Part shown: positions 1 through 17,373 of the stretch, in pieces
Layout: each line of letters begins with the position of its first letter
Numbering within the stretch: the first letter of the stretch is position 1
IMG/VR virus record: IMGVR_UViG_3300044838_000061
Span: 10,483 to 74,482 of that record
Direction: 5' to 3' (one strand)
DNA from: a virus
Length of the DNA: 64,000 nt
Made by a program: the position numbers and the translations under genes
The notes under the pieces: model-generated
Databases searched by the model: none
What the model was told of the DNA's origin: nothing
Seen by the model: the letters and a program-made list of their open reading frames with translations, nothing else

Positions 1-2750
1 GATCCGGCGATGAAGACGTCGTTCCAGTTCGGCTCGAGCCACATCCACTGCGGGATCGACGTGATTAGGTACTGCTTCTGGGAGGTCCCGGACGAATTGA
101 CGAGGGTCCTGGCCGCGCAGTCGAAGGCGAGGTAGTCGCCGTCGGCGAGAACTCCCGTCCAGTTGATCTGCTGCCCATTGGTCAGGTTGAGCAGGATGAG
201 GTTGGAGATCGCCCCGTAGACCACGATCAGCGGTCGTTCGGGCGCGGTGCCACGGTTCCTGACGAAGAGGATCTGGTTCTGTAGTTGGACGCTCCCAGGG
301 ATGATCGTGCGCGCCGTCAGGGGTGCGGTGAGGGGTGCCCCGAACCCCAGCTGCGTCGTGTTCCCAGACGTCGGCACGAGGACCTGACTGTGGCTTTGCG
401 TCGAGCACTTCGCGTATGGCTTACTCGTCCTGACGGTGACTTGGAAGGACCGCTTGAACTGCGTCATGGAGTCCTGGGACTCCTTGATCGACGGCTTCGT
501 GACCGGCTTAGCCCAGAACGACACGTCTGCGGGACAGATCGACGCCGCCCGGAAGTCATCGAGCGCCCAGTTCGTCCCAACCGTCTGCGCCCCGAACCCG
601 ACCTGAGAGAGAACCTGGTCCCCGTAGGAATCGGCGTCTGACCCCGTCAGTGACGCCGAGACCGTGAATGTCGGCAGTGTGCTCTCGGACGGCGGAGAGG
701 CCCAGAGTTCGCCCGTGACGTAGTCCCCGTCTTTCCTCGCGCGCAGCCAGATTGACTGCCCTTGCACGACCCCAGTCACGAGTGTTGTCGCGAGCACGGT
801 CATCACGCCGGCGTCCACCACGGCGATAGTGATCGTCGGCGTTCCCGAAGCGACGTTGTAGGAGACCTGGAGGTAGTTGTTGGCGTCGACGAGGCACGGG
901 GCGACGTAGGCCGTCGATGCGTCGGTGGTCGACCCGACGACGATTCGTACGGTGGTGACGGCGTCTCCCCACAGTCGGTTATCAGCGCTGCGCATCAGCA
1001 TCACGTTCGAGGTCGTGAGCCACTGGAGGACGCCGCCCGAGACGGCCAGCGAGGCCGAAGACCCGATCGTTGCGGTGTAGTTCTGGAGCGTCTGTGGGTC
1101 GTCAAAGGTGTCGTAGACGTCGAACCATCGGAATTTCATCGGTGCCTCACTCAGCGGTGCGAACGCTGCCTTCAGGTCGCGCTCAAGCCTCTTACAGACC
1201 CCGAGCGACCCGGCTTGGATGTCGCCCGAGATGACGAACGTATTGTGAGTCGGGATCATCTCTCGGCCAGCAAGATAAAGATGGTTCGGAGAATCAACCG
1301 AAATGCATCTAACTGGCCGACTTGCCACTGACTTCACTTCTACGATGTATCGGAATCGCTCGACTTCGGGATATTTGAACGCCGCGCGACGGGCGCGCCA
1401 AGTTTCTGTCTTGCGACTCAGCCAAAATACATTATCGTTCGGAACGAAACTCACATTCCATTGTGGACCGCATACCGTTCCGTCCCTTCTCTTTGATACA
1501 CCTTGTCTGATTACCGCCCGATATCCAAGTGATAGGACTAATTCTAATACGTCATTAGCTAGACGCTCATTTGTGTTATCAAATTCGACCCTGCCGGAAT
1601 CTCCAACTGTGCCATCAGTATCCAACAATCCAGCAAGCAGCGCACGACGTTGCTTGATGGATGACTGCATATATTCGCGTGGAATATGTTTGTTGCGCTT
1701 TGATTCTTTCTTGCTCAAAAGTCCCATTTTACTTAGAGCAGCACCGAGTCCATGAGAGTAAGGGGGCGTTGAACGGACAATCCATTCAAGTGCTACGGGT
1801 GTCCGAGTGACCTTGTAACCATCGCGTCGAATGTAGTCGATGATTTCCTCATCCCATTCCGGCACGTATAATTTGGGAAAGTATGAATTACCATCTCCAA
1901 GCCATGCGCCGAGGGTATACGGCCTGATAGGAAGATCACATTCTGAGTATCTAAGTGGACCTGCTATACGTATGGCATGGTTTGTGTCGCCATTTGACAC
2001 TCGCAGAGTTGCGCTGATCTCTTTAGTCGTATGAATTGCTGAGCTATGTATGTGTCCAGAATCCTTCAGCCTTTGGACTCGATAAGTCGCCGCAGTTTCG
2101 GCAGCCTCTACTTCAGTATCAAAAACACCGAGATCACGCCGAAAATATCCACCGTGGTATGCAACCCACTGATTGCCTTCAGACCTAACTCCGCGGTATC
2201 GTGAGGATGCTTTGTCGCGGCGGCCGGCGTGTGTATTGCGCAACAGTTTGCGCGCCGCCGCTAGCCTGATCCTAGACTTCAGATCGACCGTTGCCCACCG
2301 ATGATCTGCGTCCGCGATTATGCAAGATCGACTTACGTCAGTCTTCCCAGATGAGAACCAAACTTCATAACAAGGTCGACCACTAGGCTGTGGATAAACG
2401 CTGATGACATTGCAAGGTTCGCCCTTATCATCAAAGACTTGATCTCCTACACGAAGATCCTTCATCAATCTCCAACCATTGGGGGTAGGGATAGGTGTTT
2501 CGTCGTCTAGTGCGCGCCCGCGGTACCAAGAGTCGTAGACGAACTCCCCCTCGTCACCGGGCACGACCTCGCGCGAGTCCGTTATGTCCGCCCCGTCGAG
2601 TCCCGTGATACTCGTGACGCGGATCCGGTCCGCCTGATGGCGGTCGTTGATGACGTACCCGTTGTACTCGATGAACGCCTGTACCCCGAACGACAGCGGA
2701 GAATCCCAGGGCGCTGTCTGGTGTGAGTAGGTACGTGAGGCGACGGTCAC
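1..2750 (-). CDS. Distal tail (Dit-like) protein precursor with a class 3 intein and an inserted lectin-like domain; 3' end lies beyond the window
   Basis: Absent from the ORF track because it has no stop inside the window. Translated by hand from GTG at 2750, just after the tape-measure stop: MTVASRTYSHQ...VTSITGLDGADITDSREVVPGDEGEFVYDSWYRGR|intein|TFVISGDIQAG...LFVRNRGTAPERPLIVVYGAISNLILLNLTNGQQINWTGVLADGDYLAFDCAARTL...WLEPNWN. Its position after the TMP and the N-G-T-A-P-x-x-P and 'GD-L--D' motifs are typical of siphovirus Dit. Confidence 0.85.
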   Translation of the reverse strand, partial: MTVASRTYSHQTAPWDSPLSFGVQAFIEYNGYVINDRHQADRIRVTSITGLDGADITDSREVVPGDEGEFVYDSWYRGRALDDETPIPTPNGWRLMKDLRVGDQVFDDKGEPCNVISVYPQPSGRPCYEVWFSSGKTDVSRSCIIADADHRWATVDLKSRIRLAAARKLLRNTHAGRRDKASSRYRGVRSEGNQWVAYHGGYFRRDLGVFDTEVEAAETAATYRVQRLKDSGHIHSSAIHTTKEISATLRVSNGDTNHAIRIAGPLRYSECDLPIRPYTLGAWLGDGNSYFPKLYVPEWDEEIIDYIRRDGYKVTRTPVALEWIVRSTPPYSHGLGAALSKMGLLSKKESKRNKHIPREYMQSSIKQRRALLAGLLDTDGTVGDSGRVEFDNTNERLANDVLELVLSLGYRAVIRQGVSKRRDGTVCGPQWNVSFVPNDNVFWLSRKTETWRARRAAFKYPEVERFRYIVEVKSVASRPVRCISVDSPNHLYLAGREMIPTHNTFVISGDIQAGSLGVCKRLERDLKAAFAPLSEAPMKFRWFDVYDTFDDPQTLQNYTATIGSSASLAVSGGVLQWLTTSNVMLMRSADNRLWGDAVTTVRIVVGSTTDASTAYVAPCLVDANNYLQVSYNVASGTPTITIAVVDAGVMTVLATTLVTGVVQGQSIWLRARKDGDYVTGELWASPPSESTLPTFTVSASLTGSDADSYGDQVLSQVGFGAQTVGTNWALDDFRAASICPADVSFWAKPVTKPSIKESQDSMTQFKRSFQVTVRTSKPYAKCSTQSHSQVLVPTSGNTTQLGFGAPLTAPLTARTIIPGSVQLQNQILFVRNRGTAPERPLIVVYGAISNLILLNLTNGQQINWTGVLADGDYLAFDCAARTLVNSSGTSQKQYLITSIPQWMWLEPNWNDVFIAG
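1242..2513 (-). mobile_element. Class 3 intein (424 aa) with LAGLIDADG homing endonuclease and an AP2-like domain
   Basis: Block A ALDDETPIPTPNGW (Ala1); block B IIADADHRW; block C YTLGAWLGDG; block E LLAGLLDTDG; block F RPVRCISVDSPNHLYLAG; block G MIPTHN|T. GC content is visibly lower than in the flanks. Confidence 0.93.
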
Positions 2751-2753
2751 CCT

Positions 2754-5700
2754 CTACAGAGCTCCACTGACCTCGTGCGCCAGCTGCTCGCCGATGATCG
2801 ACGGGTCGAGCGAGGTCGTCGGGGCGTGGTTGATGTTCAACTCGCCGATGGTTGGCGGAGTCGTGCCCCCGGTTACGCCAGTGAAGGTCGGAGCGATCGA
2901 CGGTGCGGATCCGGCCGGGAGCGACGCCTGGAACTGCGGCAGGAGGTTCCCCATCCCGCTGAAGATCGCGGTGCGGAATGAGGACCACGCGCTCGTCGAC
3001 CACTGCTGGGGCTGGAGCAGCTGTCCGTTGAGCGTCGCGAGCTGCTGGTTATTCTGGGCGATGGCCCCGGTGTTTGACTCCAGACTGCTGATGAGTCCCT
3101 CGAACGTGCTGATCCACGCCGCGTCGTGGCCCGACTCGATCCCCGAGATGTTGGCCCCCGAGAGTGCGGTGACGAATTGCTGGGGGGTAGACGCCTGTCC
3201 GAGCAGCGACGCGAGTCCGGACGCTCCATCCCCGAGCTGACCCAGTTGTCCTAGGAGTCCAGTGTTCGTTCCCTGGAGGCTGGTGTTGCTCATCGACGTG
3301 AGCGCCTTCAAGGACGCGACATCGGTGAAGCCTGTCGTCTGCCCGATGGTCTGGATGATCTGTCCGAGACCACCAAAGACGCCGGTCTGGAACTGGCCCC
3401 GGGACTGGATGTACTGCGCGGTCTGGTTGACGACCTGAGCGGTGTTGTCCTGGAGAGCTAGGTCGTTCTGTGCCAGTTGCGCGGTCAGCCCGTCGATCGT
3501 CTGAGTCAGCGTCGCGACCGCCCCCGTGTCCCCGGCGGCGCTGGCCTGGACGAGGAGCGAGTTGTAGGACTGGAGCTGGCCCTGAAGACTCGACTGGTTG
3601 AGTTGAAGGGCCTGGAGGTTTGTCGCCCCGGCCGCGGCGAACTGTCCGGGAGTCGAGGCCGACTGGGTCATCGTTTGGGAGATCGACTGAAGCTCGGAGA
3701 CCTTGGCCTGCTGGGTCTGGGCAGTTTGCTGGACGGCCGAGATCGAGTCTTGGATCATCTGGGCCGTCATCTGCACAACTGATCCCTGAAGCTGTGCGAT
3801 CTCCTGCTCGATCTGCGACGCGAGCCCTTGGTCACCGCCGGCCACGGCCTGCGCGAGAACCGCCTGAAGCGACGTGATGTGCTGCTGTGTCGTTTGGATG
3901 ATGGCCGCGTCGATGCCTGGTAGGAGGCTCAGCTGGCCGAGGGACTGCGCCGCCGACTGGATCGCCGACTGCTGCGCGGATTTGGTCTGGAAGGTCTGCT
4001 CGACGGCGGAGAACTTGTCTTGGACCATCTGGATCGTGGCCTGGCCGACTGTCTGGTTGAGCTGAGCGATCTCCTGCTCGATCTGCGCGACGAGGTCAGC
4101 GTCGTGCATCTTCTTGGCCTCTTGAAGAGGCTTCTGGAGCGCCGATATCTGGTGCTTGGCGGACTCGGCCAGCGCCTTGTCGATGGACTGGAGCGCGCCG
4201 TACTGGCCCTTACTCTGGGCGGTCGACTGGGCCGCCTGTATCTGGGTCTGCTGGGTCTGGTAGACGTCGCTGACCTGATTCAGGGTGTCCTGTACGTACT
4301 GCTGCTCGGCCTGGAAGGTCGTCGTGATCTGGGAGTTGATCGAGTTGTTGAGGCCCTCCTGCTGCTGGACCAGGAGCGTGTAGGCACTCTCCAGCTTCTT
4401 GACCGTGGAGTCCTTGGTTGACTTGGAGAGGCGCGACCGGCGTACCTTCGAGATCCTTGACTTGACCTCGTTGATCGCCTTGGTGGTCGCCTCGGCCTCG
4501 CGGCGGAGGTAGTCCGTCTCCTCTACCGAAGCGCGCACCCCCAGCGCGTCCAGCTCGGCCTGACCCGTCTCCCCGATGTGTCCCGTACCGGAGGTGACCG
4601 TTCCGACGCCAGCGACGTGCCTCGTAGTCAGGAGTCCTGCTCCCCTCAGTGACACGCCGCCGTAGCCGCTGCCGGCGAACCCAGCAGGTGTTCGGTGGGT
4701 CACACGTGCCACCGATGTCGGGCGAACACTCGCTGATCGGTACCCGATCCCCGTGATCCAGTTCGTTAGGTTGTTCTGGAAGCGCTGGAACGCGGCCGAG
4801 AGCATGTTGAGCGTCGAGTTTGGGTTGTTTGGGTCGGCGAACGCCTCCAGGAGCGTCCCGATCTTGTCCGTCTGTTTCTTGATCGGGAGCGCGTCTATCT
4901 TCGTGAAGGCGCGCACGACTGCCTGGAATACGCCCGAGAGGACCTCGAGACCACTCGTGAGTGAACCGGGGTCGATCTTGAACAGGTTCGCCGAGACGCT
5001 CTGGAGGAAGCTTGTCGCCGACGACACGGTCTTGAAGTGCTTCGGTACCTGTCCACCTACATCGAAGTGCTGCCGCGGTGCCTCGCTGTCATAGCCTAGG
5101 TGGGAGTCGAGTCCGTGCGCTCCCATGCCCGTGATGCGCCCGAGCTCGTCCCACTGCGGCGGATTGACGACGCGCTCGCCCTCGTGCGCCATGATCGGCA
5201 CCGGCTCGCCGCCCCACGGCGCTCGACCGCCACCTGCGAAGCGAAGGACGTGCTTGCGGAGGTGACGTAGGCCGATACGCCTCGCATGCCGAGTCAGGAG
5301 GCCCCCCGCCGCGTAACCCTGTGCGTAGGCGGCGTTAGCACCTGTAATGCGGTTTGACATCGCCGGGATACCAGCGCGCTCGAATCCCTGCTCAAAGATG
5401 GTCGCGGCGTCGCCCGGACTCTTGGCAGCATTCATCGCCGCCTTCAGGCTCTCGATCTGAGGCAACATGGTCTGCATCTGGTGTAAGAGCGAGCCGCCTG
5501 AGCCAGACCCGAAGTTGCTGATCTGCTGCCACAGTCCGCCGCCAGCAGCGTTCGGGTCCATCGAGGACTCCTGGTAGGCGTTGCCGAGCATCCCCGCGAT
5601 GGCGATCTTGTTGAACCCTGCGGCGCTCATGAACTGATCGACTTGTTTCTCGACCGAGCCGCTGAGCTTCACGTTCGGCATCCCGGCGCTACCGACGAAC

Positions 5701-8700
5701 CTGGCGAGGTACTGGTTGGCGGCGTTGGTGACCTTGTTGACGACCCCCTGCGCGATGGCCCCCCACGCGCCTCCCACGCCTTTGACCTTCGGCGCGACGA
5801 GCTTCTGGATGGCCGCGAGTCCACCCGTGATGACACCGCGCTGCAGTCCGCTCAGGAAGGTGCGGAAGGACGACCCGGCAGGCGTTACCTGTCCTTCTTG
5901 GTAGCCGGTGGTCGCCATCGCCATCGTCTCACCGCTGGCGGTCGCCCAGCCCGTCTCTATCCCGGACCCTGAGGTCGCGTAGTAGGCGATCCGCTGTCCC
6001 TCGCTGAGGGTTCGACCAACCTCTGCCTGGAGGGAGCTGGTCGCGCGAGGGTCATTGGAGGGGATCCCGGGAACTCCGGTGATCTGCTCGGCGACGTAGA
6101 CGTACTGTCCCGCGTCGGGTCCGCCCGTCAGCTGGTACCAGATGAGCGGCTGGCCGTTGTACCAGCCCGGCTTCACTCCCTCGACGTGGGCGTTCCCGAT
6201 TACGCCGATCGGCGTTCCTGGCGCTAGGTCGACGTCAACGCCTTGGTCGGTGCGTCCCCAACTGACGTTCGCATTCCCGAAGGGCGACGTGTAGATACTC
6301 GCGTTTCCGACCAGTCCCCCCTTCGCGAGGTGCGGTGAGTTCTGGAGGTAGCGACTCAGGAGTGCGCGTTGGCGTGGTGCGTGTCGCGGGTCGGTGGTGA
6401 GGGTGACCTCATCGTGACCGCCCTCCGCGACGTGGACCAGCCTGCCTCCGGGCTGCGCGGCGTTCCAGCCACCCTCCGCCTGCGACATCACGCCACCAGC
6501 GCTCAGCGTTCCGCCGAGTAGTCCCGCGATCACGTTACTTTGAGTGACAGGGTTGATCTGCCTCGCCCCAGTCCCGAGCGAGATCCCTCCCTGCCCGAGT
6601 GCCTTCAGGGCGTTGTCCAGCATCCGGTCAAGCTGGCCCATCGCCTTCCCGACGCCGCTGACGCCTAGCGCCGCGAGTGTCTGGATCTTCGTGAAGGCCG
6701 CAGCGGTAAGTCCGGTGACTTGCTCGGTCCAGCCCTGAGTTCCCTGAATGAAGTTCGACGAGATCGCTTGGTTGTCCTGACTGAGTTGCTGCTGGATCTG
6801 GCCCATGACGTTCTTGGTTGTCGCGTCGAACCCGGTGAAGGTCGTCGCCCACTGCGCCCCCGACTTCTTCAGCGCGACGTTGAGGGGATTCAGCTCATTC
6901 GACAGCGCGCGGATCGCCTCGCGCTGTTTCAGTGTGAGGTCGGGCTGCTGACTGAGCTTCTGGACCAGCCCGTACATCGACTGGAGCTGGGAGTTGCTCA
7001 GTTGCGACGCGTCGGTGACGCCCTTGAGTCCTTGTTGGAGCCGAGATAGGTCGGCGGTCGTTCGCGAGCCTTGATTTGACGACGTTGAGGACCCGAGCAG
7101 TCCGAGCGTGGCGAAGTTCGCGAAACTGCTAAGGCTGATCCCAGACTCATGCGAACCACCGACTGGGCCGAGCATCGACGCGAGATCGCCCTTTGTGCTC
7201 TTCCCGGCCGTGATGTTCTGACCGAAGGCGTTGGTCTTGTCTGCTAGGTAGGCAGCGGCGGCGATCGGGAGGACGCGCGTGAGGCCGAACCGGGCCGCTC
7301 CCACGCCCGCGGCGGCGCCGCCCGCTCCGACCTCAGCGGCGGGGACTCCGGCTCCGCCAGCTCCGGCCGCGACTCCGCCTCCGGCGGCCGTTCCACCGGC
7401 CGCGAGGATGGCGAGGTCGGCCTCCTCGGTGGTAATGAGCGTCGTCTGCTCGATGATCGCTGCGTCCACGGCCTGTTCGTCGGCTACCTGGCGCGCGGAG
7501 GACGCGTCGGTCGCTCCGGCTAGCTCCGTCTGTGCTGCGGCTACGTCGCGTGTGGCCTTGGCGCCCTTGGAGATGCGCGTCGTCAGCGCCTCCCACGCGG
7601 CCCCGATACGGTTCAGTATCCCCTCGCCCTCCTGGAACGCCTTGAAGGCATCGAAGAATCCGTGGACGACGTTCGTCGCGGTCGTGACCAGCGATATGAC
7701 GCGGTTCAGCACCATGAGTCCTAGGAACGCGGCGACTAGTCCGACGACTACTGCCTTCAGCGGGGCGACAGCGTCGAGCAACCTCATGAACTGGGTGACG
7801 AGGAAGCCGACCGTCGTCGCAAGGATTCGCGCCGCTGGCAGCACGATGTTGTTGAGCAGTCCCGCGAACGCTCGCAGTGACGTCAGGTTGAAGACTTGGA
7901 TCAGCGATGACCCGACGTTGAACAGCACTCCGCCGATCAGGCCGAGTCCTTGGCGGGCGTCCGAGAAGAACCTGGTGACCTCGGGGCCGTGGTTCTGGAC
8001 CCAGGTCGTAGCATCGTGAAGCGCCTCTGTGAAGCTCGTGACCGTCTTCATCCCCTGCGGGGCGGCGTCGTGGCCGAGCGCCTTGAACAGGTCGAAGGTG
8101 GCTCCGGCGAGGTGGGCGAAGTCCTCGGCCCACTTGGCGCCCTGGTTGAAGAACGACGTCAGCCGCGCCTGCCCTTGCGGCGTACGGTCGCGAGCATCCA
8201 TCGCGTCCCAGAAGCGCGCCCAGTCCCCCGAGAGCTGCCTGAACGCCGGGGCCGCCGCCGTGGCGATGTCCTCGAAGACCTTCATCAGGCCCGTGATGGC
8301 CTTGGTGATGATCGGGATGCTCTTGGTGGCGTCCTTCGACATCGTCTCGAAGAACGAGGTTCCTCGCTGACCGAACATGGTCTTCTCGAGGCCGCCGAAC
8401 TCCTGTCCCATCGCCTTCGCGAGCGCGTTGATCGGCTGCATGAAGCTCTTGTTGCCGAGGAGCTGCTGGAGCCTCATTCCGGCGTCGAGGAACGGCGTGA
8501 CGATGTAGTCGGTGATCTTCTTCAGTGGCGAACTGGGAGAGCGAAGCTGGGTCTCGAGGTTGTTGAGCATCGAGAACAGCGCCTTCTCGGGGGCCGACAT
8601 CTGGCCCAAGAGGTATTGGAGCGTTCCCTGCTGCGACGTCATGTGGGACGCCGGCTGGGCGAGTTGAAGCTCGGTGATCCGCATTTGCCGCTGGGCGTTG

Positions 8701-10313
8701 GCGACCTGCTGCTGCGCCTGCACGACAGCGAGCAAGGACTGGCGATAGGACTCGGAGGCCGCGAGAACCTGCGGCGATCCTGTGACTCCGTAGCTCAGCG
8801 CGAGTTGGAGGTCTTGTCGTGATCTCGGCACTGCGAGGTGTGCCTGTTGGCGGGAGACCTGCGCTCCCTGGAGCTGTAGTTGGGCCTGCTGGATGCCGAC
8901 CTGAGACCCGCTCGCCTGGACGGCCCGTAACTGCTGTTCCGCCTGGAGGACCGAGAGGTTCGCTTCCTTGAGCTGTAGCTGGGCGCTCTTCTCGGCGAGG
9001 GTGAGGTCCTGGAGGTTTCGGACGGCGTCGATGCGCGCCTGGGTGAGCGCGATCTGTGACTCCCTGACCTGGACCTGGGCGTCCTTGAGGGTGTAGTAGG
9101 AGTTCGCGAGGTTCTGCTCGGACTCGATCAGCTGGCTCGTGTTCTGGAGCTGGTTGATGAGTCCCTGGGAGGGCTGGAAGAAGGCCGTTTGACGCGCCTG
9201 CTGCGCCGCTTGGACGGCCTGGAACACGTCCCTAAGGCGTATGAGGGCGGCGATCCCGACCGAGACCATCGGGATCATCTGGCCGAGTCCCGATAAGAAC
9301 ACGCCTCCAATGGAGGCACCCGCTTGTGAGGCACCAGAGGCGACGTTGAAGAACCCAGCCACGAGGCTCCCAAGGCCCGTGATGAGCGGCTGGAACAGAC
9401 CGAGTAGTGCAGTCAGCCGAAGCCCTCGCAGCCCTGCCGACAGCGACATGATGTGTACCCCGACACTGTCCGTCGCAGCGGCGAACTTCTGCGCGAACTC
9501 GCCCACGGACGACGAGGCACGCGCGAGGTCGGTGTTCTTGGCCTTCTTGCCTGCATCCTCCATCGCGTTACCGAAGCGGTGTGCCTCCGACGACCCCGCG
9601 TCAAACTGACGCATGACAGACCGCAGCCCGCTCTCCACCTGCTTGTAGCTGACCTCTAGCTGCTTGTTCGTGGCCGTGTGCGAGCGCGCTGCCTGGTCCG
9701 TGCGCTCAAGGCTCCCCAGTAGCGCTTCTCCGCGCGTCGCAGCCTTCTGTTGAGCCTCGGAGAGCTTGTCTGTCCCTGCCGACGCGCGACCTAGGTCGCC
9801 GTCGAGGTCGCGTACCCCGGCGGCGAGCTGGTCCACCTTCTGCCGCGCTTCCTCCGTGCTGGCACCGAGGTCGACGTGCGCCTGCGCGTGAGAGGTGACC
9901 GACTCTGCCGCCTGGTCGTGCTGCTGGGCGACGCGCTTGACCGACGCTTCGGCGCGCTGAGCGTCCTGTGGGAGTAGCTGCTGCTGGCGCCGGACCTCCT
10001 GCAATGACTCCGCGTGACCTGTGGCGGCCTCGGACGCTTCCTGCTGCCACCGGGCAGTGCGCTTGACGTCACTCTCGCTCTGCTGAGCTGCCCGTCGCGT
10101 CTCCTGCTGCTGTCTGGCGAGATCCTTGTGGGCCTGGGTCGCTCGCTCCGCCTCGTCAGCGGTGTCGCTGAGCCCCGACCGGAGGTCCTTGGTGGCGTCC
10201 TCTCCTGCGGCCTTCGCCTTGAGTTCGTCTACCGCGTGCTGGAGGTCGCGGATCTTCTGACTGGCGTTATCCTTCGCTTCAAGAAGGATCTCGATGAGGT
10301 ACGAATCGGACAT
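2754..10313 (-). CDS. Tape measure protein (2519 aa) with a degenerate M23-like domain and a tail-lysozyme domain
   Basis: Very long A/Q/L-rich helical ORF after the tail chaperone, with hydrophobic segments. Internal motifs: GRTDQGVDVDLAPGTPI (M23-like) and AGFNKIAIAGMLGNAYQESSMDPNA..GLWQ (phage tail lysozyme type). Confidence 0.93.
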   Translation of the reverse strand: MSDSYLIEILLEAKDNASQKIRDLQHAVDELKAKAAGEDATKDLRSGLSDTADEAERATQAHKDLARQQQETRRAAQQSESDVKRTARWQQEASEAATGHAESLQEVRRQQQLLPQDAQRAEASVKRVAQQHDQAAESVTSHAQAHVDLGASTEEARQKVDQLAAGVRDLDGDLGRASAGTDKLSEAQQKAATRGEALLGSLERTDQAARSHTATNKQLEVSYKQVESGLRSVMRQFDAGSSEAHRFGNAMEDAGKKAKNTDLARASSSVGEFAQKFAAATDSVGVHIMSLSAGLRGLRLTALLGLFQPLITGLGSLVAGFFNVASGASQAGASIGGVFLSGLGQMIPMVSVGIAALIRLRDVFQAVQAAQQARQTAFFQPSQGLINQLQNTSQLIESEQNLANSYYTLKDAQVQVRESQIALTQARIDAVRNLQDLTLAEKSAQLQLKEANLSVLQAEQQLRAVQASGSQVGIQQAQLQLQGAQVSRQQAHLAVPRSRQDLQLALSYGVTGSPQVLAASESYRQSLLAVVQAQQQVANAQRQMRITELQLAQPASHMTSQQGTLQYLLGQMSAPEKALFSMLNNLETQLRSPSSPLKKITDYIVTPFLDAGMRLQQLLGNKSFMQPINALAKAMGQEFGGLEKTMFGQRGTSFFETMSKDATKSIPIITKAITGLMKVFEDIATAAAPAFRQLSGDWARFWDAMDARDRTPQGQARLTSFFNQGAKWAEDFAHLAGATFDLFKALGHDAAPQGMKTVTSFTEALHDATTWVQNHGPEVTRFFSDARQGLGLIGGVLFNVGSSLIQVFNLTSLRAFAGLLNNIVLPAARILATTVGFLVTQFMRLLDAVAPLKAVVVGLVAAFLGLMVLNRVISLVTTATNVVHGFFDAFKAFQEGEGILNRIGAAWEALTTRISKGAKATRDVAAAQTELAGATDASSARQVADEQAVDAAIIEQTTLITTEEADLAILAAGGTAAGGGVAAGAGGAGVPAAEVGAGGAAAGVGAARFGLTRVLPIAAAAYLADKTNAFGQNITAGKSTKGDLASMLGPVGGSHESGISLSSFANFATLGLLGSSTSSNQGSRTTADLSRLQQGLKGVTDASQLSNSQLQSMYGLVQKLSQQPDLTLKQREAIRALSNELNPLNVALKKSGAQWATTFTGFDATTKNVMGQIQQQLSQDNQAISSNFIQGTQGWTEQVTGLTAAAFTKIQTLAALGVSGVGKAMGQLDRMLDNALKALGQGGISLGTGARQINPVTQSNVIAGLLGGTLSAGGVMSQAEGGWNAAQPGGRLVHVAEGGHDEVTLTTDPRHAPRQRALLSRYLQNSPHLAKGGLVGNASIYTSPFGNANVSWGRTDQGVDVDLAPGTPIGVIGNAHVEGVKPGWYNGQPLIWYQLTGGPDAGQYVYVAEQITGVPGIPSNDPRATSSLQAEVGRTLSEGQRIAYYATSGSGIETGWATASGETMAMATTGYQEGQVTPAGSSFRTFLSGLQRGVITGGLAAIQKLVAPKVKGVGGAWGAIAQGVVNKVTNAANQYLARFVGSAGMPNVKLSGSVEKQVDQFMSAAGFNKIAIAGMLGNAYQESSMDPNAAGGGLWQQISNFGSGSGGSLLHQMQTMLPQIESLKAAMNAAKSPGDAATIFEQGFERAGIPAMSNRITGANAAYAQGYAAGGLLTRHARRIGLRHLRKHVLRFAGGGRAPWGGEPVPIMAHEGERVVNPPQWDELGRITGMGAHGLDSHLGYDSEAPRQHFDVGGQVPKHFKTVSSATSFLQSVSANLFKIDPGSLTSGLEVLSGVFQAVVRAFTKIDALPIKKQTDKIGTLLEAFADPNNPNSTLNMLSAAFQRFQNNLTNWITGIGYRSASVRPTSVARVTHRTPAGFAGSGYGGVSLRGAGLLTTRHVAGVGTVTSGTGHIGETGQAELDALGVRASVEETDYLRREAEATTKAINEVKSRISKVRRSRLSKSTKDSTVKKLESAYTLLVQQQEGLNNSINSQITTTFQAEQQYVQDTLNQVSDVYQTQQTQIQAAQSTAQSKGQYGALQSIDKALAESAKHQISALQKPLQEAKKMHDADLVAQIEQEIAQLNQTVGQATIQMVQDKFSAVEQTFQTKSAQQSAIQSAAQSLGQLSLLPGIDAAIIQTTQQHITSLQAVLAQAVAGGDQGLASQIEQEIAQLQGSVVQMTAQMIQDSISAVQQTAQTQQAKVSELQSISQTMTQSASTPGQFAAAGATNLQALQLNQSSLQGQLQSYNSLLVQASAAGDTGAVATLTQTIDGLTAQLAQNDLALQDNTAQVVNQTAQYIQSRGQFQTGVFGGLGQIIQTIGQTTGFTDVASLKALTSMSNTSLQGTNTGLLGQLGQLGDGASGLASLLGQASTPQQFVTALSGANISGIESGHDAAWISTFEGLISSLESNTGAIAQNNQQLATLNGQLLQPQQWSTSAWSSFRTAIFSGMGNLLPQFQASLPAGSAPSIAPTFTGVTGGTTPPTIGELNINHAPTTSLDPSIIGEQLAHEVSGAL

Positions 10314-16191: not shown

Positions 16192-17373
16192 CTACCCGGT
16201 CTGCCCGTTCAGGAAGGCTTCTGGCCGGCGCAGCCGCACGAACCGCGCTGACGCCTGCCGGAAGAAGTGCGTGTAGTGGTCGAGCAGGATCTCTGACTGC
16301 ATCCCCTGTAGCCACGCCAGGCGGTTGAAGTCCTGGCGGACGGCGACCATCCCGTCGGCCACGTCGGCGATCGGCTCGCCCTCGAACACGTACGGCCCGG
16401 TCACCAGCACGGTCCCGTCGGGGATGTACTTGGTCATCGCCGAGAGGCCGCGGCTGTAGCCGGCGGTCGTGTCGCGGTAGCCGGCGTCCGAGACGATGAT
16501 CCTCGGGGCCTGCGCTACGCGGTCGCCCTGTGAGTCGGTGTCGACGGACCCGTACAGCAGTCCCTCGATGTCCTGACGCGTCGGGAGGAACGCGTTGCGG
16601 TCGGTCTGGGTCAGGTAGCCGCGGGCCTGATCGGAGCGCTGGAGGCGCGTCCAGGTGACCGTGTTCATGTGCAGGTTGCAGCCGTAATAGCCAAGGTCGT
16701 TGGCTACCTGGAGCTGCCACGCACGCATGTCGTCGATCGGCGTCGCGTTGCCGCGGTCTGACCACGGGATCGCGGCCGTCGGCTTGTGGCCCGAGTAGTA
16801 GTTGTACTGGACGGTGACCTGCTGTCCGGTCTGCGGGTACTGCACGACGATGTTGTTGCCGAGGAACGCCTGCCAGCGCATCCACTCGGTCCGGTTCTCG
16901 TTGCGCAGCTGGAGGACCGCGGCGCTCGTCACGAGGTCGACGCCCGCGCGTGCGCGCACGTTCGGAGTCGGCGACGTGAGCTTGAGGTGGGCGTCCTCGT
17001 CGATCCGCTGCATCTCGTCGATGAGCAGCAGGCTCACGACCTCTTGCGTGTAGCGGATGTCCGGGGTGTAAATGGCCGGCGTTGCACCCGGGGCGCGGAA
17101 CTGCGCGACTCCGAATGAGGCGACCTCCGCGATCTCGCGCTCGATCGTTCGGTCATAGACCGAGAAGTTCGGCGCGATCTGCGGCCCGATGGCCAGGATT
17201 GACTCGAACATCGTCTGGAGACGACGACGGACGAGGTCGGTGAAGGTCGCCTGCGAGAAGACGTCGAAGACGTTGAGATTCCCGTCGGGACCCTGCTGCT
17301 CGCCGCCCCCCATCGGGCGGTGACTCTCGGCCAACCATTCGGCGCGAGAGGGCTTGCGTGTCTTGACTGCCAT
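16192..17373 (-). CDS. Major capsid protein (lambda gpE-like)
   Basis: 393 aa; ENRTEWMRWQA, WSD..ATPIDDM..W and YIPDG motifs; follows the decoration gene. Confidence 0.85.
   Translation of the reverse strand: MAVKTRKPSRAEWLAESHRPMGGGEQQGPDGNLNVFDVFSQATFTDLVRRRLQTMFESILAIGPQIAPNFSVYDRTIEREIAEVASFGVAQFRAPGATPAIYTPDIRYTQEVVSLLLIDEMQRIDEDAHLKLTSPTPNVRARAGVDLVTSAAVLQLRNENRTEWMRWQAFLGNNIVVQYPQTGQQVTVQYNYYSGHKPTAAIPWSDRGNATPIDDMRAWQLQVANDLGYYGCNLHMNTVTWTRLQRSDQARGYLTQTDRNAFLPTRQDIEGLLYGSVDTDSQGDRVAQAPRIIVSDAGYRDTTAGYSRGLSAMTKYIPDGTVLVTGPYVFEGEPIADVADGMVAVRQDFNRLAWLQGMQSEILLDHYTHFFRQASARFVRLRRPEAFLNGQTG

Follow-up and report, generated by a model that had tools for sequence, protein, structure and literature searches.

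Relation to Characterized Inteins

Inteins are usually described at the nucleotide-binding or catalytic sites of enzymes involved in replication, repair, and packaging. The element considered here is a class 3 intein in the gene for a distal tail protein, Dit, of a virus. It lies on a 64,000-nucleotide stretch of DNA, referred to as the window, that comprises bases 10483–74482 of the 74.5-kb IMG/VR record IMGVR_UViG_3300044838_000061, for which the completeness estimate is 80%. Structures of related class 3 inteins are available for the mycobacterial DnaB inteins, Msm DnaBi1 (6bs8 and 6own) and Mch DnaB1 (6rix and 6riy). These share with the Dit intein an Ala at position 1, the Trp-Cys-Thr triad, a penultimate His, and a terminal Asn, as well as Cys48 and a Tyr ten residues past the block F Cys. 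The DnaB inteins interrupt the P-loop of a replicative helicase, are followed by Ser at position +1 (PMC7360933), and were solved as mini-inteins. In contrast, the Dit intein resides in a structural tail protein, is followed by Thr+1, and contains a LAGLIDADG endonuclease and an AP2-like module.

The nearest relatives of the Dit inteins in phylogenetic trees are found in TraG P-loop (PF19044) and AAA_10 (PF12846) ATPases of the conjugation type, from metagenomes and Actinobacteria. These inteins have the same architecture, show 40–50% identity over the full length, and are inserted in a G-K/T context like the G-R/K / T context of Dit, in which the final slash marks the insertion point. Their hosts are nucleotide-binding enzymes with a true Walker A loop, whereas the Dit site merely resembles one. 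The yeast VMA1 intein, PI-SceI (1lws), has in common with the Dit intein a Hint domain with an inserted LAGLIDADG endonuclease. PI-SceI differs in that it belongs to class 1, with Cys1 as its nucleophile, is only ~16% identical to the Dit intein, and has a eukaryotic host. Past block B, where the Dit intein has its AP2-like module, PI-SceI has an extra region for DNA recognition.

Phage-borne inteins of classes 1 and 3 that contain LAGLIDADG endonucleases, are sporadically distributed, and show evidence of “extein switching” have been described in actinobacteriophages (PMC5050341; bioRxiv 10.1101/2025.01.02.630785). The 2025 survey covers ~800 inteins in 19 host genes, with class 3 inteins in only four hosts; its structural hosts are the tape measure, portal, and minor capsid proteins and a “baseplate wedge domain” protein, and Dit is absent from the 19 host genes (bioRxiv 10.1101/2025.01.02.630785). 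The survey of mycobacteriophage inteins by Kelley et al. in 2016 has no Dit host, and the word “tail” does not occur in it (PMC5050341). A full-text literature search for inteins together with distal tail, minor tail protein, or baseplate returned no tail-hub intein. An earlier note on this DNA had called Dit an unusual host for an intein; this holds in that Dit is not among the surveyed hosts, but the tape measure, portal, minor capsid, and baseplate wedge inteins are precedents for structural hosts. Dit is new both as a host protein and as an insertion site, but the element that occupies it is of a well-known kind, and no new mechanism is involved.

We consider it very probable that the virus is a large uncultured siphophage whose “evolved” Dit was entered by a selfish class 3 intein, probably still mobile, at the motif of highest conservation (G-G/R-R/K / T) in the N-terminal ring domain. 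This reading is based on the anatomy of the element, its boundaries, the conservation of its catalytic residues, the Dit fold of a proxy, its foreign GC content, its sporadic distribution, and its descent from inteins of Walker A motifs.

Anatomy of the Dit Intein

The intein occupies positions 1242–2513 (−) and comprises 424 amino acids, Ala1 to Asn424, which are residues 80–503 of a 934-residue open reading frame (ORF). As the earlier note had described, the insert is in frame; it is translated without a stop codon between the flanks YRGR and TFVISG, and its junctions read ...YDSWYRGR/ALDDETPIPTP ... IPTHN/TFVISG. The Ala start and the class 3 triad that had been assigned to it were found at the codons checked, namely Ala1, Trp73 (in DADHRW), Cys403 (in VRCISV), Thr422-His423-Asn424, and Thr+1, as was His71. 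The N-terminal half of the Hint domain, with blocks A and B, spans 2217–2513 (−) and contains Cys48 (2370–2372), His71 (2301–2303), and Trp73 (2295–2297). The C-terminal half, with blocks F and G, spans 1242–1358 (−) and contains Cys403 (1305–1307), Tyr413 (1275–1277), and Thr422-His423-Asn424 (1242–1250). Ala1 provides no Cys, Ser, or Thr nucleophile at position 1, a feature that most relatives share, and Trp73 lies two residues past the block B residue His71, as class 3 requires. In an alignment of 29 intein relatives, Cys403, Thr422, His423, and Asn424 are invariant, and His71, Trp73, Cys48, and Asp68 are at least 90% conserved.

Both splicing halves match the class 3 DnaB inteins 6rix, 6riy, and 6bs8 in a phmmer search of PDB sequences (E values of 6.5e-25 to 1.2e-22), with alignments that extend from approximately residue 3 to the terminal THN. 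A profile search of PDB sequences recovers Mch DnaB1 and Msm DnaBi1 at 1e-49 to 1e-52. His71 and Trp73 also align with the solved class 3 inteins, and Cys403, the predicted initiating nucleophile, pairs with the block F Cys in 6bs8 and 6rix. The assignment of the insert as a class 3 (Trp-Cys-Thr, or WCT) intein with a LAGLIDADG endonuclease, which the catalytic residues and the homology to DnaB inteins bear out for the class 3 identity proposed earlier, is confirmed at the level of sequence by a match far beyond chance.

The predicted homing endonuclease domain spans 1374–1946 (−) and contains two LAGLIDADG motifs, LGAWLGDGNS and LLAGLLDTDGTV, both of which retain their acidic residues. The middle of the intein matches the Pfam families LAGLIDADG_3 (1.4e-9) and Hom_end (1.6e-4), and Gly206, Gly208, Asp298, and Gly301 of the LAGLIDADG region are invariant among the 29 relatives. 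An AlphaFold model of the intein, calculated on the alignment of relatives, has a mean predicted local distance difference test score (pLDDT) of 90.4. Its best fold match is PI-SceI (E = 3.5e-19, template modeling (TM) score of 0.61); next come other inteins that bear endonucleases, the class 3 DnaB inteins, and I-DmoI.

Between the N-terminal half of the Hint domain and the endonuclease, residues 103–151 (2061–2207 (−)) form a putative DNA-binding module. In the model, this module is composed of three strands (residues 109–112, 115–120, and 126–131) and a helix (residues 134–151), with block-averaged pLDDT values of ~80–92; the three-stranded sheet packs on the single helix, which is the topology of the AP2 type. 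An AP2 match at E ≤ 0.1 is obtained for three of the 29 intein relatives (best, 1e-4), and no AP2 chain was recovered in the profile search of PDB sequences with the intein. As modeled, residues 103–151 are probably an AP2-like, additional DNA-binding module; membership in the AP2 family is not claimed. For actinobacteriophage class 3 inteins, which occur in four host proteins of the 2025 survey, the reported maximum is 359 amino acids, and the AP2-like insert accounts for most of the excess of the 424-residue Dit intein over that maximum. The earlier note was right about the class 3 intein and the Dit host and overlooked the AP2-like module, the resemblance of the insertion site to a Walker A motif, and the presence of related inteins in other Dit genes.

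The Host Protein and the Insertion Site

The Dit precursor gene lies at 1–2750 (−), with a GTG start codon at 2750–2748, three nucleotides after the stop codon of the tape measure protein gene. It has 934 codons in full. Within the window its ORF covers 3–2750 (−), and the last 18 codons and the stop codon lie beyond the left edge (L001:1446–1502; full gene, L001:1446–4250). The gene was missing altogether from the ORF list, as had been noted, and it appears only when open-ended ORFs are listed; the overrun of the left window edge is the likely cause. The N-extein (2514–2750 (−)) consists of 79 residues, with which the N-terminal ring domain of Dit begins, and ends in ...YDSWYRGR. The C-extein (3–1241 (−), with Thr+1 at 1239–1241) has 413 of its 431 residues inside the window and contains the remainder of the ring domain, an insert resembling lectins and carbohydrate-binding modules (CBMs), and the C-terminal domain of Dit.

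Several lines of evidence identify the host protein. The tape measure protein gene (2754–10313 (−), 2519 amino acids) is directly upstream, and because of this gene order the next gene is identified as Dit. The C-extein matches PHROG 33, “distal tail protein Dit,” at 4e-11. The Pfam family SPP1_Dit scores below its cut-off in this gene (16.5 bits versus 25) and above it in P0155, one of the intein-bearing relatives described below. A search of 1.84 billion representative proteins yielded 535 relatives of the C-extein, among them P0008, an intein-free allele of 512 amino acids that is 52% identical to this Dit. The fold was judged on P0008, modeled with 46 homologues, as a proxy for the ligated exteins. 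The P0008 model (pLDDT of 84.8) is most similar to SPP1 Dit (2x8k; E = 3e-9, TM score of 0.71 on the target), and further matches include the monocin tip and the baseplates of phages 80alpha, NF5, and Douge. Its central domain matches lectins and CBMs, including CBM2 of the evolved Dit of phage J-1. Because the P0008 fold matches both Dits and a lectin/CBM core, the host protein is modeled as an “evolved” Dit with a lectin/CBM core. The Dit-like host proposed in the earlier note thus agrees with the gene order, the PHROG 33 match, and the proxy structure. In practical terms, an annotated “Dit” of 930–960 amino acids may be a Dit of 510 amino acids plus an intein.

Intein-free alleles define the boundaries of the element. 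The search suggested earlier, for uninterrupted alleles and for other inteins at the R/T site, turned up both. Uninterrupted sites read YRGR/TMVMTG, NRGR/TIVLTG, and YRGR/TFVMSG, and P0004, P0006, P0007, P0008, and P0009 read ...[YN]RGR/T[MILF]V... with no insert. Since these alleles run from R to T without interruption, the intein is exactly Ala1–Asn424. The motif at the site is GE..YD..YGGR/TITL.G across the family; in alignment A1, Gly79 and Thr81 are at least 90% conserved and Gly86 is invariant. In the P0008 model, the insertion point falls between Arg80 and Thr81, at the start of a long strand of the N-terminal domain (residues 80–90), and a precursor that has not been spliced would be unlikely to fold into the Dit ring or to assemble.

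Two further features of the family were observed. Five alleles of 669–713 amino acids (P0004, P0006, P0007, P0009, and P0015) contain an extra domain of ~190 residues at varied positions downstream of the intein site. Because this domain is placed at differing points in close alleles, the family is a modular “evolved Dit” with swappable inserts that probably bind carbohydrates. Separately, a low-GC branch of Dit genes, with a GC content at third codon positions (GC3) of 0.22–0.26, has GGR/N at the site (intein-free loci L004, L005, L007, and L008; P0010, P0011, and P0015). As Asn+1 would not supply the Ser, Thr, or Cys nucleophile that the intein needs, such alleles may by nature resist productive invasion.

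Distribution of Dit Inteins

A related intein is present at the same Dit site in three other metagenomic proteins. In P0005 (953 amino acids), the intein, N-extein, and C-extein are 75, 79, and 55% identical, respectively, to those of the window. P0155 (962 amino acids), encoded on a 98,427-base viral contig, has the flanks WGGK/.../TVTIAG and an intein that is ~50% identical. P0037, a partial protein, has an intein and a C-extein that are 57 and 29% identical to those of the window and is the neighbor of P0155 on the extein tree. The four Dit inteins form one clade with 100/100 support in a careful maximum-likelihood tree. On the extein tree, the proteins that bear inteins fall into two distant Dit subclades and are interleaved with intein-free alleles. 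P0155, which lies in a different subclade from the Dit of the window, pairs with the intein-free P0038 at 100% support, and the branches with good support require no fewer than three gains or losses. Among the 150 best representatives of the Dit family, the intein occurs in two. This distribution is consistent with cycles of gain and loss by homing, itself a prediction from homology.

No relative was found in the related-locus search with the single C-extein, and no prophage relative in the A3-based scan of genome contigs; the metagenome scan with an alignment gave only two distant intein-free loci.

Origin from Inteins of Walker A Motifs

To place the Dit inteins among their relatives, 132 related inteins located in the 120 best hits were considered. 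Most of these are at a GxGK/[ST] site, that is, between the Lys and the Ser or Thr of a Walker A motif, and the others are, for the most part, second inteins located at different motifs in proteins that were invaded twice. Their hosts include FtsK-like, TraG/VirB4-like, Rad3/DinG, and TerL proteins. Within the subclade to which the Dit inteins belong, every intein apart from the Dit inteins themselves is at GxGK/[ST], and the Dit clade groups with the inteins of the PF19044 and PF12846 ATPases with 100/100 support. The phylogeny thus indicates that the Dit inteins descend from Walker A inteins of TraG/VirB4-like ATPases. The Dit motif, GG[RK]/T[IV]T, resembles the Walker A sequence GxGK/T, and this resemblance may have let the intein jump ectopically from the P-loop of an ATPase to a structural protein. 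The Dit intein would then be a concrete example of extein switching, in which an intein moved with its endonuclease to an unrelated host protein, a non-enzymatic tail hub, by way of a motif similar to Walker A.

Many related hosts, including TerL and FtsK-like proteins, contain two class 3 inteins per polypeptide (P0154, P0156–P0159, P0161, P0168–P0170, P0175, P0176, P0181, P0198, and P0216). Often, the second intein occupies another motif, and its first residue is Pro or Ala.

Base Composition

The earlier description of the insert as low in GC is correct: the intein has a GC content of 49%, compared with 63–64% for the exteins. The difference is larger in GC3, which is 0.425 for the intein, 0.835–0.847 for the exteins, and 0.825 for the tape measure gene, and the edges are sharp at both junctions. 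Because the GC3 of the intein is 0.425 and that of the exteins ~0.84, the intein looks like a recent horizontal arrival of foreign base composition. In the P0155 gene (L009:4001–6886, IMGVR_UViG_3300047388_000292), which belongs to a phage of 54% GC, the GC3 is 0.385 for the intein and 0.48–0.54 for the exteins. The intein lineage seems to keep a moderate GC composition of its own in whatever genome carries it.

Proposed Mechanism

Homology to characterized class 3 inteins suggests the following sequence of steps. Translation would yield the 934-residue precursor, in which the block F residue Cys403 would attack the peptide bond between Arg(−1) and Ala1 to form a branched thioester. The N-extein would next be transferred to the side chain of Thr+1, cyclization of Asn424 would free the intein, and an O-to-N shift would produce a native Dit of 510 residues, able to join the tail tip. 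The freed intein, with its two-motif LAGLIDADG endonuclease and AP2-like module, is predicted to cleave the Dit alleles that lack it in co-infecting relatives and to copy itself into them by homing. As a natural class 3 intein at an Arg/Thr junction, for which splicing is predicted, it may serve protein engineering.

Alternative Explanations

The insert could be read in three other ways. The abrupt shift in GC3 at both edges would fit an assembly chimera, in which low-GC foreign DNA was wrongly joined into a high-GC phage contig. Such an error would, however, have had to produce exactly 424 codons in frame, with intein termini exact to the residue, at a site that runs on unbroken in alleles lacking the intein, and a related intein is found at this site on three independent contigs from other sources; a chimera is extremely improbable and was rejected on these grounds. 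A dead or domesticated intein, retained unspliced as an extra domain of Dit or marking a pseudogene, was likewise rejected and is very improbable. The Dit family does tolerate large inserts, as the 669–713-residue alleles with extra modules demonstrate. Those inserts use a loop region, whereas the intein splits the best-conserved motif, where a core strand of the N-terminal domain begins; all splicing residues and both LAGLIDADG motifs are intact, and the 75% identity to the nearest relative over the full length gives no sign of decay. The remaining alternative, which we regard as unlikely, takes up a redox- or metal-sensitive gate on virion maturation that the earlier note had suggested and that finds no support in the present evidence. 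In this view, the intein has been co-opted as a conditional-splicing gate that would switch off Dit maturation and tail-tip assembly under oxidative or metal stress, either through a Cys48–Cys403 disulfide or through zinc binding at Cys403. In DnaBi1 of Mycobacterium smegmatis, oxidative stress leads to a reversible disulfide between C48 and the nucleophile, C118, and zinc is coordinated by C118, the backbone of V119, and Y128 (PMC7360933). The equivalents of C48, C118, V119, and Y128 in the Dit intein are C48, C403, I404, and Y413, and because of these matches sensitivity of the Dit intein to oxidants or zinc is plausible by analogy. The position of the insertion, at the start of the core strand of the ring domain, speaks for a gate as well, since it makes assembly of the unspliced precursor unlikely. 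If a gate existed, unspliced precursor would be barred from the Dit ring, and virions would stall before completion in hosts under oxidative stress or a metal load. Such a gate would be the first checkpoint on a phage structural protein to act post-translationally through splicing. Against this proposal, C48 is at least 90% conserved in inteins of many unrelated hosts, so that the sensor residues are a property of the clade and did not arise as an adaptation to Dit. With its foreign GC3, the intein looks newly arrived and unlike a regulator of long standing. Only two of the 150 best representatives have the intein, and there are close alleles that lack it; since most Dit alleles are without it, the phage lineage does not need the intein. 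Any redox or zinc sensitivity is possibly a by-product of the element, and a gate is unneeded to explain the data.

The preferred explanation, a selfish and probably mobile intein in an evolved Dit, has points against it as well. One old invasion followed by several precise losses could also explain the intein and extein trees. No low-GC3 co-conversion tract is found in the extein flanks, where GC3 is high right up to both junctions, and such flanks are not predicted by simple homing from a low-GC donor allele. The Dit fold comes from the model of an intein-free allele of 52% identity and not from the ligated exteins of this gene, and the AP2-like module scores 13.9 bits (E = 0.069) against a Pfam cut-off of 33.3. 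Splicing and endonuclease activity, homing, and the jump by way of a Walker A-like motif are predictions drawn from sequence.

The Phage and Neighboring Genes

The phage is without a close cultured relative. Window positions 1–4000 gave no megablast match among cultured phages, and tblastn searches of 50,697 phage records with the C-extein and with the intein-free P0008 gave none. No second intein was found when one was looked for in the same phage record. The major capsid protein, encoded at 16192–17373 (−), matches PHROG 29 (4.4e-21). Its tblastn matches are weak (~30% identity over 41% of the length) and are to the 90-kb Gordonia phages Mollymur, Bantam, and SpeedDemon; this weak capsid similarity is the sole clue to the host of the phage.

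Directly downstream of Dit and outside the window, a 658-residue protein (L002:8448–10424 (−)) contains two concanavalin A-like lectin domains (Laminin_G_3, 6e-31), and a Tal signature is not recognizable in it. The two genes beyond it have PHROG matches to “minor tail” and “virion structural” only. On the other side of Dit, residues 1555–1664 of the tape measure protein (5322–5651 (−)) match the “Phage tail lysozyme” domain, PF18013, with an E value of 2.1e-10.

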